A stretch of 64,000 nt of DNA from Alkalispirochaeta sp. (GTDB lineage Bacteria > Spirochaetota > Spirochaetia > DSM-27196 > Alkalispirochaetaceae). Shown in pieces: positions 30,666 to 41,185 of this stretch; position 1 is the first letter of the stretch; each line of letters starts with the position of its first letter. Position numbers and translations under genes: made by a program. The stretch is taken from positions 608,001 to 672,000 of the forward strand of contig OZ271854.1 of assembly GCA_965601925.1 (NCBI GenBank). Reading direction: 5' to 3'. The notes beneath the pieces are model-generated. The model was not told the origin of the DNA. It saw only the letters and a program-made list of their open reading frames with translations, and did not search any database.

Positions 30666-31664
30666 ATGAGTAACGACCGCCTCGGCGCATCGGCGCTTGA
30701 CGACAAGGAATACGAGCAGCTCCTGCGATCGGCTCTCGACGCGTATGTGGCGGTACTCGTCGCCGACCTTGACGATCGAATACTGTACGCCAACAAGCAA
30801 TGGTGCGATATCTGGGGCTACACCGACGGGCCACCGGAGGTGGTCGATACGAAACTTCTCACTCTCGCACGCAACATGATTCACGATGTCGACGCATTCG
30901 AAGCGCGCATCGTCTACTTACGCGCCAACCCTCACGAAACCTCCTTCGAACTCGTACAATTCACCGACGGTAGAGTCCTGGAGCGACTCACCGCTCCATT
31001 GTACGTCGCGGGCGAGCTGCGCGCGCAGATATGGGCGTTCAGAGATCTGTCGGACCGCCTCAGCCCGTCGCTCATCTCACCCTCGAGCGGTCTCATATCC
31101 GGAAGCGGCGAGTCGGCGCGGCGCCTCGCCGCGACATCGGCGCGCGTTCGCGATTTCGTCAGTCGACACGTCGACGACATGTGCACTGTCTGCGTGGGCC
31201 TCGTATCGCTCCTTCACGACGCCATCGAGTCCGGAAGCGAGGATGACGAGTCACCAGTTCGCGCGCTCTCGCGTTACACCGCCATGTACACCGCAACCGG
31301 CCTCGGCTGCGATCCGAACGCCATCGACATCTCCGACACCCGTGAGAACGGCGCGGCGATGGTACCGCGGAGTCTAGACGCGCTTCTCGGTGCCGAACTG
31401 CTCCTCGCCGGCCTCGTTGCACTCGCGGCCGGGGAGGAGGTTGTGGCCGAGGTGCGGATTCACGCTTCGACGCTGGACATCGCCGGGCGACATCTCGGCT
31501 CGTATCCGCCCGTCGTAACCTACCCTCACATCGATATCGCCCGCGACTGCGCCGATCTTATACGGCGAGAGACGGACCACACGAGGACGGCGCAACCGGG
31601 ACTGGTGAGATTCGCGAGGCTCCGGTTTGAGGAGGAGACGACTCGCGGGGAGGATACGCGATGA
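30666..31664 (+). CDS. PAS domain protein with unassigned (possibly degenerate kinase-like) C-terminus
   Basis: ILYANKQWCDIWG...FTDGRVLER...IWAFRDL PAS signature. Confidence 0.75.
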   Translation: MSNDRLGASALDDKEYEQLLRSALDAYVAVLVADLDDRILYANKQWCDIWGYTDGPPEVVDTKLLTLARNMIHDVDAFEARIVYLRANPHETSFELVQFTDGRVLERLTAPLYVAGELRAQIWAFRDLSDRLSPSLISPSSGLISGSGESARRLAATSARVRDFVSRHVDDMCTVCVGLVSLLHDAIESGSEDDESPVRALSRYTAMYTATGLGCDPNAIDISDTRENGAAMVPRSLDALLGAELLLAGLVALAAGEEVVAEVRIHASTLDIAGRHLGSYPPVVTYPHIDIARDCADLIRRETDHTRTAQPGLVRFARLRFEEETTRGEDTR

Positions 31665-32701
31665 ACCGGTCCGTGGCGTTTTACGACGCCATCCTCGACA
31701 CGTTGGCCGCCGTGCTCATCGTAGATGAGGAGGGTAGAGTACTATACGCAAACGAGCCGTGGTACGACATGGTCGATGTCGAACGGAGTATCGTAGATTT
31801 TCGCATCACGCCGGAGCTTCGCGAGCGGTGGTCGGCCATGCTCCGCAATCCCGAGGGCTTCAGCGCTCGACTGGAGGAGTTACGGGAACACCCCGAGTTG
31901 GAAGCGCACGACCTGATCGAGTTCAAGGACGGGAGACTCTTCGAACGGTACAGCAAGCCGATTCCGAACGAGAACTATAAGAACGTACGCTTATGGGTCT
32001 TTCGCAACTTCTCAGACCGCCTCGCGATGCACGACGCTCTACCGTCGATCGCCCTCTCACAACGGGGGGCAAATAGGATCGCCGAGCGGATCGCGACACT
32101 CGAGTACGAGCTCGCTCGAGCTCGCGTACTGCGCGCCCACGCCGACGTAGCGACCGAGAAGAAGGCGGAATGGCTCGATACACTGCTCGGGACGGCGCAC
32201 AAGGTGCTGGGCGAGCTCCTTTCCGATCAGCCGCGGGGCGCCGGCTCGCTCGAGGCGGGGGAGATCCGCGATCGAGGGGCAGCCGCATTCGACGTCGCGA
32301 TTCACGGATACGCCGTGTTTCGGTTCGACGAACTCTGCTCGATTGCCGACGTCGCGTCGGTCCCGGTGTTCAGCCCGACGGCATTTCTGGAGGGATTCGT
32401 TCCTGCGCTCTGCGCACACACCCTCATGCTGAACAAACGACATTCCGGGATGCGCAACACCGAACCCGCCATACGTCTGTTTGTCGCCGGCGGCTCGGTC
32501 GTGATCGAGTCGGTCGGAGATATGCCCCCTCCCGGTGCGAGTGCCGCCGTGACCGGCGGCGCGACGGGAGATCCGCTCGATCCGCTGCGTCCCAAGCTTC
32601 GCGTGATTACCGAGCTCGAGGACATCTTTGCGACGTTAAGCGGCTTTCACCGCGCCGAGACCCGTACGGCCCGGGAATGGATACGGTACGAACATGATTG
32701 A
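31661..32701 (+). CDS. PAS domain protein, paralogue of the upstream gene
   Basis: VLYANEPWYDM...FKDGRLFERYS...LWVFRNF; ATGA overlap with the upstream gene. Confidence 0.75.
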   Translation: MNRSVAFYDAILDTLAAVLIVDEEGRVLYANEPWYDMVDVERSIVDFRITPELRERWSAMLRNPEGFSARLEELREHPELEAHDLIEFKDGRLFERYSKPIPNENYKNVRLWVFRNFSDRLAMHDALPSIALSQRGANRIAERIATLEYELARARVLRAHADVATEKKAEWLDTLLGTAHKVLGELLSDQPRGAGSLEAGEIRDRGAAAFDVAIHGYAVFRFDELCSIADVASVPVFSPTAFLEGFVPALCAHTLMLNKRHSGMRNTEPAIRLFVAGGSVVIESVGDMPPPGASAAVTGGATGDPLDPLRPKLRVITELEDIFATLSGFHRAETRTAREWIRYEHD

Positions 32702-34691
32702 CTACACCGACGGACTGCACACGACCACCATCGTGACGCTCGCCGCTCGCGAACTCCTCGGCAACCCGCGGTACGTGCGCATCGAGAGCCTGAGCGAGCG
32801 GTGGCTCGTCGAAAGCCACCCCGACGCACCGCCGGACCGCGTCGACACGGAGACGGTGCGCGGGGAGCGCCACGATGAGACGTGGCGCATCGATTGGTCT
32901 CACGGCGAGACGGGTGAACCGGGCGTACCGGTCGATCGCGAGCGCATTCGGGCCGTCTTTGCCCGGCTCATCGACACGCACGCCGACCCCGCATTTTCGC
33001 TTCGGGGGCTGCAGACGCACCGTGAGGCATCGCCGAGCTATTCCGGCGCACCGTTAAGCCCCGGCGTAGTGGCGGCGGTACCGACGAAAATCGACACGTG
33101 GGAACTCGATTCGATCCTCGCGTCGACCGAGTTACGACGCGAGATCGCCGAAGGCGAAATCGTCGCCGCCTCGCGCCTCGTGACGACCGAGATTCGCTCC
33201 CTCGCGGAGCGCTCGGCGAGCCGGGATGCCGCCGCGGTACTGGAGGCCCAAGCACTCCTGCTCGAGTCGTCGTCGTTCATCGGGGCGATCACGAGCAGCG
33301 TACGCGACGGCCAGTCTTTCAGCCTTTCGGTATCCTCGACCGTTAATCGCCTACGCGATCGGATTCGCGGCGTCGGCTCCTCGCTGGTGCTCGAAAAGAT
33401 TCAAGATATCGAGGATCTGGCGATGCGGCTCTCCCTCGCCGTACTGGGCACGAGCAGCACCTCCGTGAACGTGGCGGGGCGCATCGTATGCATCGACCAA
33501 CCGCAACCGTCGACGCTCTTTCAACTGACGAATGCGGGCGCCGCCGGTATTGCACTGTTCGACGCGACGGCAACGTCCCACCTCGCGATCATCGCTTCGT
33601 CTCTGCCGGTTCCGACCGTCCTGTTCGAAGGAAACGCGCCGACGCAGTTTGCCGCGGGGCCGTATACACTCGACGCGGAGTCGGGTGCGTTTTACGCCGG
33701 AACCGAGGCGTCCGGTACGAAGATATCCCTTCCACCGGCACTCGAGCTGGCCGGTGGACTGTCGCTGACCGATACCTCCATCATCGATCGCCCGGCGCTG
33801 CTTGCGAACGTGAGCGCGGAGCAGGATGCGGCCATCGCCGCCGCGGACGCGGAAGGCATCGGCCTGTACCGTACGGAACTTGCCTGGGAGTTGGTCGGAC
33901 GCATCCCCGCGGAGGACGAACAGTGTGCAACGTATCGCACCGTGTTCGCTTCGTTCGCAGGTAAGCCCATCACCGTCAGAACGGCCGATATCGGTGGCGA
34001 CAAGCCGATAGACGAAACTCTCTCCGACGCGGAGGATAACCCGTTTCTCGGCGTGCGGGGCATTCGATTCTCCCTGGCCCAGCGCGAGCTGTTTCGACGC
34101 CAGTTGCGGGCGATATTGCGCGCCGGAGTCGGATACGATGTGCGCGTTATGCTCCCGATGGTGACCACACCGTCGGAAATCGAGACGGCGCGCGAGGAGC
34201 TCGCTATTGCGGCGCTCGAGTTGGAACACGACGGCGTCGAACATCTGCGGACTCCCAAGCTCGGCATTATGATCGAAACGCCGGCGGCGGCGATCTATGC
34301 CGAGGAGTTGGCCCGTCGCGTCGATTTCTTTTCGATCGGTACCAACGACTTGGTCATGTATCTCATGGCGGTTGATCGCACGAATCAGGCCGTATCGTCA
34401 CTCTATCGCACCTTTCATCCGGTGATCCTCAGAACTCTCGATACGGTGGCAAAGGCGGCACATAGCGCATCCATACACGTATCGGTCTGCGGTCAGGCGG
34501 CCGCCGATCCGCACTTTTTGCCCTTCCTCGTCGGTATCGGCATCGATGCGGTAAGCGTCGCCCCCGGGAGTCTTCGTCGCACTCGCGACATCATCGCCCG
34601 TCTCTCACCCGCTCTATGCCGCGGATTCGCGGACCGCCTGCTGTCCGGCGAATCGTTGGCGGCCGTGTTGTCCGAGGTCGGGGACCGATAG
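32694..34691 (+). CDS. PEP-protein phosphotransferase (PTS Enzyme I-like) with extra N-terminal domain
   Basis: TSHLAI phospho-His, GIGLYRTE, DIGGDK, NPFLGVRGIR, SIGTNDL, CG; about 110 aa N-terminal extension. Confidence 0.9.
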   Translation: MIDYTDGLHTTTIVTLAARELLGNPRYVRIESLSERWLVESHPDAPPDRVDTETVRGERHDETWRIDWSHGETGEPGVPVDRERIRAVFARLIDTHADPAFSLRGLQTHREASPSYSGAPLSPGVVAAVPTKIDTWELDSILASTELRREIAEGEIVAASRLVTTEIRSLAERSASRDAAAVLEAQALLLESSSFIGAITSSVRDGQSFSLSVSSTVNRLRDRIRGVGSSLVLEKIQDIEDLAMRLSLAVLGTSSTSVNVAGRIVCIDQPQPSTLFQLTNAGAAGIALFDATATSHLAIIASSLPVPTVLFEGNAPTQFAAGPYTLDAESGAFYAGTEASGTKISLPPALELAGGLSLTDTSIIDRPALLANVSAEQDAAIAAADAEGIGLYRTELAWELVGRIPAEDEQCATYRTVFASFAGKPITVRTADIGGDKPIDETLSDAEDNPFLGVRGIRFSLAQRELFRRQLRAILRAGVGYDVRVMLPMVTTPSEIETAREELAIAALELEHDGVEHLRTPKLGIMIETPAAAIYAEELARRVDFFSIGTNDLVMYLMAVDRTNQAVSSLYRTFHPVILRTLDTVAKAAHSASIHVSVCGQAAADPHFLPFLVGIGIDAVSVAPGSLRRTRDIIARLSPALCRGFADRLLSGESLAAVLSEVGDR

Positions 34692-36967: not shown

Positions 36968-38416
36968 ATGGTACCGATTACGGTGGCCCGAGGAGACGGG
37001 ATTGGACCCGAAATCATGGATGCGTCGTTGCGCATTCTGCAGGAGGCCGGAGCTGATATCGAGATAGAAGAGGTAATGGTCGGTGAGAAGGTATACCTTT
37101 CCGGTAATACATCCGGCATCGAGCCGGCGTTTTGGGATTCCATCCGTCGAACAAAGGTATTCTACAAGGCGCCGTTGACGACTCCTCAGGGAGGCGGTTA
37201 CAAAAGCATCAACGTCACTACACGTAAGACGCTATCGCTCTATGCGAACGTTCGTCCCGCGCGATCACTGCATCCCTTCGTCGAGACCAAACATCCCAAA
37301 CAGGACCTCGTAGTGATCCGTGAAAACGAGGAAGACCTCTACGCGGGAATAGAGCATCGGCAAACCGACGAGGTCTATCAGTGCCTCAAGCTCATATCGC
37401 GACCCGGAAGCGAGCGCATCATCCGCTACGCCTTTGAGTACGCCAGAGCCAATAACCGCCAAAAGGTCACCTGTTTTACCAAAGACAATATCATGAAGCT
37501 CACCGACGGACTCTTTCACGACGTCTTCGACGAGGTCGCCGCCGAGTACCCCGACGTTGAAAACGAGCACTGGATCGTCGATATCGGCGCGGCGAAGATG
37601 GCCGACGCACCGGAGAACTTCGACGTACTGGTCCTCCCCAACCTCTACGGAGACGTTCTCTCCGACGTCGCAGCCCAGATCGCGGGTTCCGTCGGCATGG
37701 CCGGCAGCGCCAACATCGGCGAGCACGCGGCGATGTTCGAGGCGATTCACGGAAGCGCGCCGCGCCGGGCGGGTCAGAATCTCGCCAATCCGTCGGGACT
37801 GCTGCAGGGCGGCATCATGATGTTGGTACACATCGGACAAAGCGAGGCCGCCGAACGCGTCCACAACGCGTGGTTGCGCACGATCGAGGAGGGAATTCAC
37901 ACCTACGACATCTATCGCGAGGGAGTGAGCAAACAAAAGGTCGGCACCAAGGAGTTTGCCGATGCGGTGATCGAACGCCTCGGGAAGAAACCGGAGACGT
38001 TGCAGGCGGTAAGCTACGCCGGGAGCGCCGGCGTGCCCGCAGCGACGTCGGCATCAAAACGTAAGCCGGCGGAGCGAATTCTCAAAGGTGCGGACATCTT
38101 TCTCTCCTGGGACGAGGCCGACCGAAGTCCGGAGGTGCTCGGAGAGACGCTGAGCAAAGCAAGCGACGACCGCATCAAACTCACAATGATCACCAACCGC
38201 GGCCTCAAAGTATGGCCTAAGGGGGCGCCGGAGACCTTCTGCACCGACCACTGGCGGTGTCGCTTCGAGGGCGCAACCGATGCGGTCCAACTGAAGCCCC
38301 AAGACATCGTCGACGCGCAGCAGCGGGTACTGCAAAACGGGTTCGACATCATAAAGACGGAGAATCTGTACACATTCGACGGTGTTCCCGGATACTCGTT
38401 GGGCCAGGGGCAATAG
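36968..38416 (+). CDS. icd: Isocitrate dehydrogenase (NADP), type with C-terminal extension
   Basis: GDGIGPEI, KAPLTTP, RENEEDLY, KDNIMK, NLYGD, EAIHGSAP; C-terminal YSLGQGQ. Confidence 0.95.
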   Translation: MVPITVARGDGIGPEIMDASLRILQEAGADIEIEEVMVGEKVYLSGNTSGIEPAFWDSIRRTKVFYKAPLTTPQGGGYKSINVTTRKTLSLYANVRPARSLHPFVETKHPKQDLVVIRENEEDLYAGIEHRQTDEVYQCLKLISRPGSERIIRYAFEYARANNRQKVTCFTKDNIMKLTDGLFHDVFDEVAAEYPDVENEHWIVDIGAAKMADAPENFDVLVLPNLYGDVLSDVAAQIAGSVGMAGSANIGEHAAMFEAIHGSAPRRAGQNLANPSGLLQGGIMMLVHIGQSEAAERVHNAWLRTIEEGIHTYDIYREGVSKQKVGTKEFADAVIERLGKKPETLQAVSYAGSAGVPAATSASKRKPAERILKGADIFLSWDEADRSPEVLGETLSKASDDRIKLTMITNRGLKVWPKGAPETFCTDHWRCRFEGATDAVQLKPQDIVDAQQRVLQNGFDIIKTENLYTFDGVPGYSLGQGQ

Positions 38417-38527: not shown

Positions 38528-40162
38528 TCAGCGCAGCAACCGCCCGCCGAACCGCTTAATAACGTACTCGGTCACCTCGCTCATTGTATCGATCGAGCGC
38601 GACGAGTTTCCCGATCTGACGAAAAACCGTTCGACCGGCGGCGCACCCTTTGCGGCAATTCGGGTGTACAGCGGGACTCGTCCCTTGCGGACGTCCAACC
38701 GACAGATCTCCCGACCGTCGATGACGGGAAAGCGAATTCGGATACGATCGGCGGCAAAGGCGGTACCGTAGTGCGACGAGATGAGGTTACGCAGATGGAG
38801 CTCGAAATAGTCTTTTCCCTCGTCCTTGAGACAGCCGTAATCGGCGTCTAACCCCGCGATCTGGCCGTCGTCGGACACACCGATGAGAATCGTTCCGCCG
38901 CGATGGTTGTTAAAGGCCGCGATCGATTTAATGATCACCAACTCGAGATCCTTGTTGGGCCTCTTTTCGCGATGATCCCAGCGGAGTGACGCTTTTAACT
39001 CCAGCGACGCGGACTCGCCGCCGGCGATGCGCGCCTTGAGCTTCTCCTCGTCGGTAGCTTGGTCGATACGCGTCATGAAGTCCCGCACCAACAGAATCGA
39101 CAGGAGCGCGACGGCGCCGAATACGAGGGCGCCGACGAGTTGAAAGGGGAAATAGAGTCGTGCGATCCATAAGGCGTCTTCGGGAATGACCGTACCGACG
39201 AGAATGTCGGCGCGTCCTACGTTGAGGGTTCGCGAGTCCGTGCGCCAGGTGCGCCCCCCGTACTGGAACAGCACGTCACGAGAGAGTGCGGATACGCCGT
39301 CGGTCCGTTCGCCCAACGCCTCGGCGAGTAGGTCCGCCTCATCGCCGAAACGGATCGGCGGGCGCGCGAAGCCGGACTCGTCGAACGGTTCTGCGGTACC
39401 GGCGACCTCATCAATCGAAAAGATAAGATACTCGCCCTGGGGCAAAAGGAGAAAGACCGCCGCGTCGGAGACGCCCTCAAGCGGCTCCAGCCAGTGAGCC
39501 ATCGTGGCAAGGGGCAGGTCAAGCCACAGGTGGATCGTCGAGTCGGTCGATCGCGCACCGATCTCGGCCTCGATCGTCACTCCCGTGACGTCTTTGTCGA
39601 GGAGCGTGTACGGACTGCTGATACGAAATCGGACGCGCGATCGGATCTCCTCCACGGTAGCGATCGGCGAGTCCCACAACCGTAGGTACTCGATATCGGC
39701 GCGCCTGCGACGAGCGATCAAGGAGTCTCCGTGCTCCACGGTCGTCTCGTACCATTCATAGGTCTCGAGCGTATCGTCGAGTCGGAAGACCAACTCGCGT
39801 TCGGCATCGTCGGCTATTGAGATCGCCGAGACCGAGCCCATCGACGCAAGACTATGGAAGAGCGTGTCGGCGTAGGCGGCGGGATCACCCAACGAATCGA
39901 TGGCGCCGATCTCGACCCACAACGACGCCGAGGAGATAAATTGAAACAAGGGAGAGAAATACCCGTCGACGACCCTGAGAAAGCGCGTGGAAAGAGTGTC
40001 GACGATCGCTTCGTTGAGTCGTTCGCGAATCATCGTACTGCCGACGGCCAGAAATACGAGCGCCGCGAGCGCGGCGGACAGTAAGAGAATGGTCAAACGA
40101 CGAACGAACTGTCGTACTTGATCCGAACGATCGGGTTTCCATTCGATCCGGTATAAACTGAT
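38528..40162 (-). CDS. Two-TM periplasmic sensor (Cache-like) fused to a cytoplasmic Schlafen/AlbA_2 domain
   Basis: TM, about 300 aa loop, TM, then GESASLELKASLRWD...IAAFNNHRGGTILIGVSDDG...FFVRSGNSS. Start uncertain (ATC after GGGAGG). Confidence 0.8.
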   Translation of the reverse strand: MSLYRIEWKPDRSDQVRQFVRRLTILLLSAALAALVFLAVGSTMIRERLNEAIVDTLSTRFLRVVDGYFSPLFQFISSASLWVEIGAIDSLGDPAAYADTLFHSLASMGSVSAISIADDAERELVFRLDDTLETYEWYETTVEHGDSLIARRRRADIEYLRLWDSPIATVEEIRSRVRFRISSPYTLLDKDVTGVTIEAEIGARSTDSTIHLWLDLPLATMAHWLEPLEGVSDAAVFLLLPQGEYLIFSIDEVAGTAEPFDESGFARPPIRFGDEADLLAEALGERTDGVSALSRDVLFQYGGRTWRTDSRTLNVGRADILVGTVIPEDALWIARLYFPFQLVGALVFGAVALLSILLVRDFMTRIDQATDEEKLKARIAGGESASLELKASLRWDHREKRPNKDLELVIIKSIAAFNNHRGGTILIGVSDDGQIAGLDADYGCLKDEGKDYFELHLRNLISSHYGTAFAADRIRIRFPVIDGREICRLDVRKGRVPLYTRIAAKGAPPVERFFVRSGNSSRSIDTMSEVTEYVIKRFGGRLLR

Positions 40163-40333
40163 CTGCGCCTCCCGCGTTATTGCGGTACCATACCCTCGCC
40201 GTTCGGACCGTATCAACCCGCCGAGCCCGAGGAAAAAGAGCAATAAACGGAATGAGCCGTGCGGTGAGAAATGCGTACACTCGGAGTACGTTGCGGCGCG
40301 CAACGATACGTATCAAAAAACGGGAGGATACGG

Positions 40334-41185
40334 ATGAAACACGCGGAAACGCCCCATCACTTTCGGCTCGCCGAACGCTGCATCGCGTATCTCGACGGCC
40401 ATAAACGGGAAAAGGTCGATATGAAAACGCTCTCGCAACACGTCGGCGTCTCGGAGTTTCACCTCAATCGACTCTTCTCCGAGTGGGTCGGCATTACGCC
40501 GGATAGATTCATGCGATACCTCAAAAAGGAGGTCGTTCTGTCCCACTTGGCGCAAACGCCCCTACTTGATATCGCTCTGGATGTCGGATTCGCAAGCCCA
40601 AGCCGAGTACACGAACTGATGGTGACCTATGAGGCGATGTCGCCGGGAGAGCTGCGCCTGCAGGGTCGCGGCAGTGTAATCCGCCACGCCTTCGCCGAGA
40701 CGCCGTTCGGGCGGGGATTCATCGCCGCAACCGATCGCGGGATTTTGGTGCTTCGCTTTGCCGAGGAGACCGACGCAGACCCCGTAGGCGACCTCTCCCG
40801 CGATTTTCCGCACGCGGACATGCGAGAGGATACGGCCACCGGCGACGTCCTTCGAGACCTGTTCACCACCGGCGGCGGCACATCGCGGCGTCTCCATCTC
40901 CTTTTGCGGGGAACGAACTTTCAGGTCCGAGTATGGGAGGCGCTGCTCACCCTACCCTTCGGTACCGTAGCCTCGTACGGGGACATTGCACGCGCAATCG
41001 GCAAACCGTCGGCCTCTCGCGCGGTCGGGCGGGCGGTGGGAGCAAACAAGATCGCCTACCTCATCCCGTGCCACCGCATTATTCACAAAGTTGGGACGAC
41101 CGGCGAATATCAATGGGGGATCTACCGCAAAAAGGCGCTGCTGGCGTGGGAGGCGGCGACGGTTGATCGGGGTCGCGATCGCTGA
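40334..41185 (+). CDS. ada: AraC-HTH / methylated-DNA-protein-cysteine methyltransferase (Ada-like)
   Basis: HLNRLFSEWVGITP HTH; GTNFQVRVW; IPCHR active site. Confidence 0.88.
   Translation: MKHAETPHHFRLAERCIAYLDGHKREKVDMKTLSQHVGVSEFHLNRLFSEWVGITPDRFMRYLKKEVVLSHLAQTPLLDIALDVGFASPSRVHELMVTYEAMSPGELRLQGRGSVIRHAFAETPFGRGFIAATDRGILVLRFAEETDADPVGDLSRDFPHADMREDTATGDVLRDLFTTGGGTSRRLHLLLRGTNFQVRVWEALLTLPFGTVASYGDIARAIGKPSASRAVGRAVGANKIAYLIPCHRIIHKVGTTGEYQWGIYRKKALLAWEAATVDRGRDR

Follow-up and report, generated by a model that had tools for sequence, protein, structure and literature searches.

The 64,000-nucleotide stretch of Alkalispirochaeta sp. DNA analysed here (contig OZ271854.1; "the window") encodes a receptor in which a diverged double-Cache sensor is joined through the membrane to a Schlafen nuclease domain. 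The receptor is a new member of a class that has been catalogued, as pSlfn12, with no discussion or test in the literature that we searched. What is apparently new, judging from the sequences, is a pattern of ATC and ATT start codons in the spirochaete members of this class. Our preferred reading, to which we give an even chance, is that the receptor is a signal-gated tRNase at the inner membrane that serves physiology rather than immunity.

Architecture of the receptor

A hydropathy scan of the receptor showed two hydrophobic segments, starting at aa 23 and aa 341. Together with Pfam and a structural model, this bears out the anatomy proposed in an earlier note on this DNA, namely a transmembrane (TM) helix, a region of about 300 aa, a second TM helix, a short linker and an AlbA_2 domain (Table 1). 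No HAMP and no MCPsignal domain was found by Pfam, so that by domain content the protein is not a methyl-accepting chemoreceptor; the description "chemoreceptor-like" in that note fits the sensor half and does not fit the output. The combination of a Cache sensor, TM helices and a Schlafen output with an intact catalytic triad supports the idea, also put forward there, of a one-component receptor. A Pfam match to Pallilysin was weak (E 0.035) and was dismissed.

Table 1. The receptor gene, its parts and its neighbours in the window. Residues are numbered from the ATC codon at 40162.
Feature	Position	Strand	Basis or remark
Two-TM dCache-Schlafen receptor gene, pSlfn12-type, 544 aa	38528..40162	-	ATC start at 40162 probable; stop TAA 38530-38528
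Shine-Dalgarno (SD) GGAGG, 5 nt ahead of ATC	40168..40172	-	Sequence; spirochaete orthologues arranged alike
Weak sigma70-like promoter match TTGATA-18-TATGGT, 9/12, just upstream of SD	40187..40216	-	Not above chance (0.7 expected)
TM1, aa 23-41	40040..40096	-	Hydropathy, model; basic N-terminus before TM1 fits N-in topology
Double-Cache-fold domain, extracytoplasmic (predicted), aa ~43-337, without YxxxxRxWY	39152..40036	-	Models, Foldseek, profiles
TM2, aa 341-359	39086..39142	-	Hydropathy, model; one helix running to aa 366 in model
Cytoplasmic linker, 19 aa, aa 360-378, without HAMP or other transducer domain	39029..39085	-	Pfam, model
Cytoplasmic single-lobe Schlafen/AlbA_2 domain, aa ~370-540	38543..39055	-	Pfam, fold, profiles
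Catalytic motif E383-x4-E388-x-K390 (ESASLELK)	38993..39016	-	Sequence; 134/134 relatives; motif defined in PMC13056530
icd (isocitrate dehydrogenase), second divergent copy, convergent with receptor gene; neighbour, not partner	36968..38416	+	
Ada-like AraC/O6-methylguanine methyltransferase, divergent from receptor gene; neighbour, not partner	40271..41185	+	

The sensor half is a diverged double Cache

Pfam gave no Cache match in the ~295-aa middle region of the receptor, the cut-off for dCache_1 being 45 bits. A first model, built from 15 sequences, had a pLDDT of 73; when it was searched with Foldseek, double-Cache sensor domains from chemoreceptors or kinases made up nearly all of the top rows (best E 2e-7). 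An AlphaFold2 model built from 132 relatives reached a pLDDT of 91. Over aa ~40-340 it matched 3lif with Z 12.8 (rmsd 4.7, 229 residues aligned); Z was 12.8 for 3lic and 11.7-11.9 for McpX, TlpC, PctD and Tlp3, and the double-Cache structural matches spanned 220-255 residues. At the profile level, the family matched solved dCache domains at E 1e-5. The spirochaete and Bacteroidales sensor profiles gave 0.6% in a direct hhalign comparison and are linked only via a third group of relatives, with 99.2% for the spirochaete profile (E 1e-19, 272 columns) and 99.0% for the Bacteroidales one. Several relatives in this third group carry a Pfam dCache_1 signal (best E 1e-8), all of them below the 45-bit cut-off. 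As modelled, the sensor of the receptor is a diverged double Cache, a call that rests on fold and profile links. The Cache-like traits claimed for this region earlier are thus upheld by fold and profiles, and not by Pfam.

The motif of dCache_1AA amino-acid sensors is YxxxxRxWY (PMC8915833). Its RxW[YF] core is missing from the query and was found in 3 of 133 sensors, and the query segment that aligns to the pocket motif YDPRxRPWF of the relative P0035 is shortened, with the motif gone. The purine pocket of McpH (dCache_1PU) is formed by Y121, R129, W140, F167 and D169 (PMC11245519); by alignment the W-aromatic pocket pair appears to be lost in the query. Sensor residues that are invariant in the spirochaete clade cluster in the first helices (W82, G86 and I88), and W137, R152, F179, S182 and G194 in the distal module are also invariant.

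The Schlafen domain keeps its catalytic residues

Residues 383-524 matched the Pfam family SLFN_AlbA_2 (PF04326) with 51.6 bits against a cut-off of 25.3 (E 1.7e-13), and the receptor is the sole PF04326 match in the 5.05-Mb genome. Both motifs reported earlier for this domain, E-x4-E-x-K and N..GG.I.IGV.D (N419 to D431), were confirmed in the sequence. A Schlafen fold, the lack of which the earlier note would have taken as refuting its reading, was found in the model: aa 370-540 matched 3lmm (DIP2311; Z 12.9, rmsd 3.2, 143 aligned), a SAMD9 domain (7ksp; Z 11.9) and SLFN5, SLFN11 and SLFN12 (Z 8.5-9).

The two-TM layout is common to 166 of 338 candidate sequences, so the fusion occurs beyond this assembly; its restriction to the assembly had been named as a second ground for doubt. 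These relatives were picked by TM spacing and not by motif, all having been found via similarity to the nuclease, and 134 were left at 90% identity. E383, E388 and K390 are kept in 134 of the 134, among them P0160, which has an SBP_bac_3 sensor in place of dCache. Mean top-residue conservation in the two-TM relatives was 0.64 in the Schlafen domain versus 0.26 in the sensor. RorSlfn5 (PMC13056530) and CbCash (PMC13462974), both of which act as oligomers, need the Ex4(E/D)xK motif to cleave tRNA. Homodimer prediction with aa 360-544 gave ipSAE values of 0.26 and 0.24 against a mark of 0.42 and was counted neither way. Since the TM2 helix runs on to aa 366 and the linker is short and without HAMP, direct mechanical coupling is plausible.

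Relation to known proteins

The architecture Cache.pSlfn is listed as pSlfn12, with 25 proteins and a group defence score of 0.36, taken here as the share near defence genes (Perez Taboada et al., Nat Microbiol 2026, PMC13056530, Supplementary Table 2); the score is 69.6% for pSlfn overall and 0.76 for the DUF262 group (PMC13056530). Like the query, pSlfn12 proteins have an N-terminal Cache, a C-terminal Schlafen and no other domain, and they are ~490-535 aa long. The architecture is therefore not as new as the earlier note had implied. WP_240526032.1, one of the pSlfn12 proteins in the table, belongs to the same 90% cluster as P0051, a relative found here; the nuclease half of the query matches P0051 at E 3.5e-43, and the sensor halves are linked only via the third group. 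In the parts of PMC13056530 that were available, pSlfn12 is only tabulated and lies outside the four architectures tested, and the words "Cache", "membrane" and "transmembrane" have 0 occurrences in the main text. The available parts of the Cash paper and its supplements (PMC13462974) make no mention of Cache. A literature search for Cache-Schlafen receptors, which covered few subscription papers, found no discussion of them. We take AAA_4 to be an earlier name for PF04326. For Marichromatium and Thiocystis, Upadhyay et al. 2016 (PMC4822843, supplementary file 12) list proteins, 535 and 537 aa in length, that combine a dCache_1 prediction with AAA_4. They were classed there as "No_output", Schlafen not being recognised as an output; by description these are like the query.

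RorSlfn5 (Slfn-Ig), EcoSlfn7 (DUF262-Slfn) and Cash (Slfn-Csx15) share with the query a single Schlafen lobe, the Ex4(E/D)xK motif and a fused sensor, and activated tRNA cleavage has been demonstrated for RorSlfn5 (PMC13056530) and CbCash (PMC13462974). These three are soluble cytoplasmic proteins, encoded in defence loci, that respond to a phage protein or cA4, whereas the query has two TM helices and a predicted extracytoplasmic sensor and lies outside defence loci. With the dCache_1 receptors, which comprise chemoreceptors, histidine kinases and diguanylate cyclases (PctA, McpX, TlpC, HK1s), the query has the TM-dCache-TM layout and the fold in common (Z 11-13). Unlike them, it has no HAMP, no MCP, kinase or cyclase output, no amino-acid motif and no Pfam dCache_1 match. 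Eukaryotic IRE1 uses a sensor in the lumen to govern an RNase on the cytoplasmic side of a membrane; with its kinase-KEN nuclease, single TM helix and unrelated folds, IRE1 is an analogy only, and we claim no homology.

Spirochaete genes appear to start with ATC or ATT

At the site equivalent to the probable ATC start of the window gene, 14 spirochaete orthologous loci have ATC or ATT with an SD 6-7 nt upstream (9 loci), ATG (2) or TTG (3). With the window gene, an ATC or ATT apparent start thus stands behind an SD in 10 of 15 spirochaete genes, a sample in which L105 duplicates L002, and L108 and L109 are near-copies. The spacers vary among these orthologues while the SD and the position of the codon persist. 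The non-canonical start is particular to the spirochaete clade: in 75 of 77 two-TM genes outside it, an ATG lies in frame no more than 35 codons ahead of TM1. Across the genome, GGAGG stands 5-7 nt upstream of 0.46% of positions, of 0.42% of ATC/ATT (no enrichment) and of 0.70% of ATG.

Other starts were considered and rejected. Upstream TTG codons (including the TTG at 40303, which would give a 591-aa ORF) have no SD, run into the ada leader and are not conserved; moreover, L002/L105 and L003 have no in-frame ATG, GTG or TTG before TM1. A downstream TTG at aa 22 would remove the conserved basic N-terminus.

AUC and AUU initiate at 1-2% of the level of AUG, and for E. coli only infC and pcnB are given as confirmed examples (bioRxiv 10.1101/063800); IF3 debars starts of this type (PMC9723500). 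The spirochaete clade may therefore limit a toxic nuclease through a weak ATC/ATT start. Such a start would add to the very few natural examples of non-canonical initiation in bacteria, and it would account for the N-termini annotated for many orthologues, which are absent or too long.

Distribution and phylogeny

Two runs contain the whole stretch without change, in each case on one contig, and this DNA may derive from them; the four runs concerned belong to a single sample, and no RNA data set was listed as carrying the locus. The partial sequence P0008, closely related at 87% identity, bears the name of a Spirochaetales protein. The metagenome scan was done with the full alignment because a sensor-only alignment was too divergent, and the matches listed lean toward the nuclease domain. 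A scan of genome contigs gave no matches with the single protein as query and 201 loci with the alignment. The best 80 of these 201 comprised 58 two-TM, 6 REC-Schlafen, 14 DUF262-Schlafen and 2 other loci; 73 of the 80 were scanned by Pfam, four two-TM loci were 5'-truncated, and L004 and L037 were assigned without a visible TM. Two-TM members occur in Spirochaetota, Bacteroidota and Ignavibacteriota/Chlorobiota. In a quick tree of the nuclease domain (omitting L029, L030, L037, L039, L043, L081, L083 and L084), a spirochaete clade of 10 with the query had an SH-aLRT of 95 and a Bacteroidota-Chlorobiota clade of 28 had one of 98, and DUF262 fusions were scattered over phyla. Most two-TM rows clustered by phylum; the two-TM label needs 3 changes on this tree, which thus does not show a single origin.

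The sensor half was found in 0 of 69 other genomes of the order of the window genome, 49 of them high quality, and 21 family relatives contained no full-length match. Of 32 genomes from the order of the closest orthologue tested, 10 were positive. In a sample of 81 genomes from one Bacteroidales family, 37 had the gene, each as a single copy. Plasmids gave no match covering 80% of the receptor, and phages and viral contigs gave no match. The GC content of the gene (0.596) equals that of the genome (0.601), so composition gives no sign of recent transfer, and repeats around the gene were short two-copy matches with no mobile-element sign. The gene is thus accessory in this genome, and was probably either acquired long ago or lost in most kin.

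A genome of the same genus (L083, G008:C15) carries a DUF262-Schlafen protein instead of the receptor. Members from Treponemataceae (L023:973-2046 and L026) are shorter (455 aa), with part of the distal sensor module gone, and adjoin a CheB-type chemotaxis gene and a DEDDh exonuclease.

Gene neighbourhoods

The neighbours of the receptor gene in the window are, by Pfam, icd, the Ada-like gene, an EEP nuclease, NlpC/P60, MsrA and a PtsI-like enzyme, and the identities given earlier for the flanking icd and ada were right. The start of the Ada-like gene is likely at 40334, judging from its own SD. Both icd and ada were rejected as partners on orientation and on their absence beside orthologues; no partner gene is conserved beside the spirochaete orthologues, which lie near metG, truA or thrS. 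The window icd is 53-62% identical to the icd of relatives, versus 69-85% for the other copy of the genome, and was therefore probably acquired horizontally; that other copy, like the window copy a long-type isocitrate dehydrogenase, is at G000:C1:1471009-1472472. At 30666-34691 of the window, two proteins with PAS domains, neither having a recognised output domain, overlap head-to-tail with the PtsI-like PEP-utilising enzyme, which has an unusual N-terminal extension.

PADLOC gave no match to the window receptor and no clear defence system among its 22 neighbouring ORFs; matches in 3 of the 22 seem to be to generic domains (deaminase, methyltransferase and ATPase). Across the family we scanned two genes on either side, at E 1e-20 and with one representative per neighbour cluster. 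Among the best 80 of 201 loci, a PADLOC match lay within two genes in 4 of 58 two-TM loci (two generic DEDDh exonucleases, one weak match and one PDC-S01), compared with 12 of 13 DUF262 fusions and 3 of 6 REC loci, the last mostly by a weak OvoA match. A Fisher test on these neighbourhoods (p 2e-9) overstates the difference because the loci are related and the counts not independent. The earlier inference that this is not a defence gene had been drawn from the icd/ada context, which itself says little; at the family level these counts and the pSlfn12 defence score agree with it.

In 22 of 58 two-TM loci queG is directly upstream, often nearly abutting, and in 26 of 58 an SSS symporter or deaminase is downstream. 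The order in Bacteroidales is fixed as HU, RNase E/G, usp, ruvB, queG, receptor, SSS symporter and TadA-like deaminase. The run from ruvB to the deaminase, in some cases followed by rluA, is seen at L028:5177-10753 and in about 21 other Bacteroidales loci. The raw recurrence of tRNA-related neighbours (queG, TadA-like deaminase, truA, metG, thrS and rluA) is suggestive.

Proposed function and alternatives

As a signal-gated tRNase of physiology, the receptor would bind a cue with its periplasmic double-Cache domain. The change would travel down TM2, whose helix continues into the ~19-aa linker, and the cytoplasmic single-lobe Schlafen domains would re-orient or cluster. Their metal-dependent E-E-K site would then cut RNA, most likely tRNA loops, and slow translation, while in the spirochaete clade the weak AUC/AUU start would keep the protein scarce. 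Ligand binding, signal transmission, the oligomer change, nuclease activity, the tRNA substrate and the physiological purpose are steps that we infer. This reading draws on the invariant triad and on the conservation of the Schlafen domain relative to the sensor. It also draws on fusions of the related nuclease to REC (6 of 80 loci) and SBP_bac_3 (P0160), which are ordinary signalling inputs, and on the double-Cache fold, the few defence neighbours, the synteny with queG upstream and a symporter or deaminase downstream, the single copies, the grouping of most two-TM rows by phylum and the lack of full-length copies on plasmids or phages.

The same protein could be an anti-phage abortive-infection factor whose dCache domain senses a phage protein, injection damage or lysis metabolites and sets off tRNA cleavage, which we consider rather unlikely. 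The two characterised bacterial single-lobe Schlafens considered, RorSlfn5 and CbCash, are immune tRNases in the available text of PMC13056530 and PMC13462974, and a weak start codon would suit a toxic effector. Among relatives that are not receptors, the nearest are DUF262-Schlafen fusions from restriction-modification loci, 42-53% identical in the Schlafen domain, and this architecture is anti-phage in EcoSlfn7 (PMC13056530). The patchy, accessory distribution in this lineage resembles that of defence genes, the spirochaete order with 10 of 32 positive genomes is patchy as well, and a conserved nuclease with a fast-changing sensor, the pattern seen here, has been tied to phage co-evolution by the pSlfn authors (PMC13056530); the pSlfn12 score is low but not nil. 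The DUF262 relatives, the distribution in this lineage, the conservation pattern and the score also count against a physiological role, as do the missing RxW[YF] of the query and the indirect link between the spirochaete and Bacteroidales sensors. An immune role is opposed by the near absence of defence neighbourhoods at two-TM loci, by the stable housekeeping gene order and the single copy per genome in a Bacteroidales family, by the plasmid and phage results, and by the fusion of the same domain to REC and SBP.

Two further readings keep the architecture and change the part played by one half. It is improbable, in our view, that the spirochaete sensor no longer binds a small molecule and serves as an anchor, a dimer scaffold or a partner-switched domain (for example, for a solute-binding protein) beside an active Schlafen domain. 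The shortened pocket segment, the concentration of clade-invariant residues in the first helices and the missing direct profile match to Bacteroidales sensors would fit such a role; the complete, confidently modelled double-Cache fold and the invariant residues of the distal module speak against it, as does the lack of a conserved partner gene beside the spirochaete orthologues. If its Schlafen domain bound DNA or RNA without cutting, the receptor would be a membrane-tethered regulator with a logic like that of ToxR and CadC, which seems a little less probable still. Database labels such as "AlbA family DNA-binding domain" and "predicted HTH regulator" are attached to such proteins, several mammalian SLFNs are without catalytic residues (PMC13462974), and the SAMD9 domain among the top structural matches was solved with DNA. 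If there were no catalysis, it would be hard to see why the three catalytic residues are strictly kept in 134 of 134 relatives, and no HTH was found in the protein by Pfam.

More broadly, and with more doubt than confidence, we suggest that widespread bacterial transmembrane receptors turn an extracellular cue into tRNA cleavage for non-immune growth control, functionally like IRE1. The Schlafen nuclease would be a general signalling output with dCache, SBP or REC inputs, and its level in spirochaetes would be tied to initiation fidelity via an IF3-sensitive AUC/AUU start. About 30% of pSlfn genes lie outside defence islands, and a non-immune role was left open by their discoverers (PMC13056530). 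With its intact nuclease site, standard sensor fold and housekeeping synteny in Bacteroidales, the receptor family is a strong test case. The concept, each functional step of which we infer, would be striking if true and would answer that stated question on pSlfn. If RNA cleavage is ligand-gated, one-component receptors of bacteria would have an RNase among their outputs, and the family would supply a modular tRNase that can be switched by a chemical.

Related Schlafen fusions

REC-Schlafen response regulators with a closely related nuclease domain were found in Bacteroidota (L016:1567-2610, L018, L020, L024, L025 and L035). They form one clade (SH-aLRT 99), four of them lie near an OvoA-like gene, and CheY.pSlfn is listed as pSlfn18 (PMC13056530). 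Fusions of related Schlafen domains to GNAT, BrxL/Lon and REase-helicase also occur.
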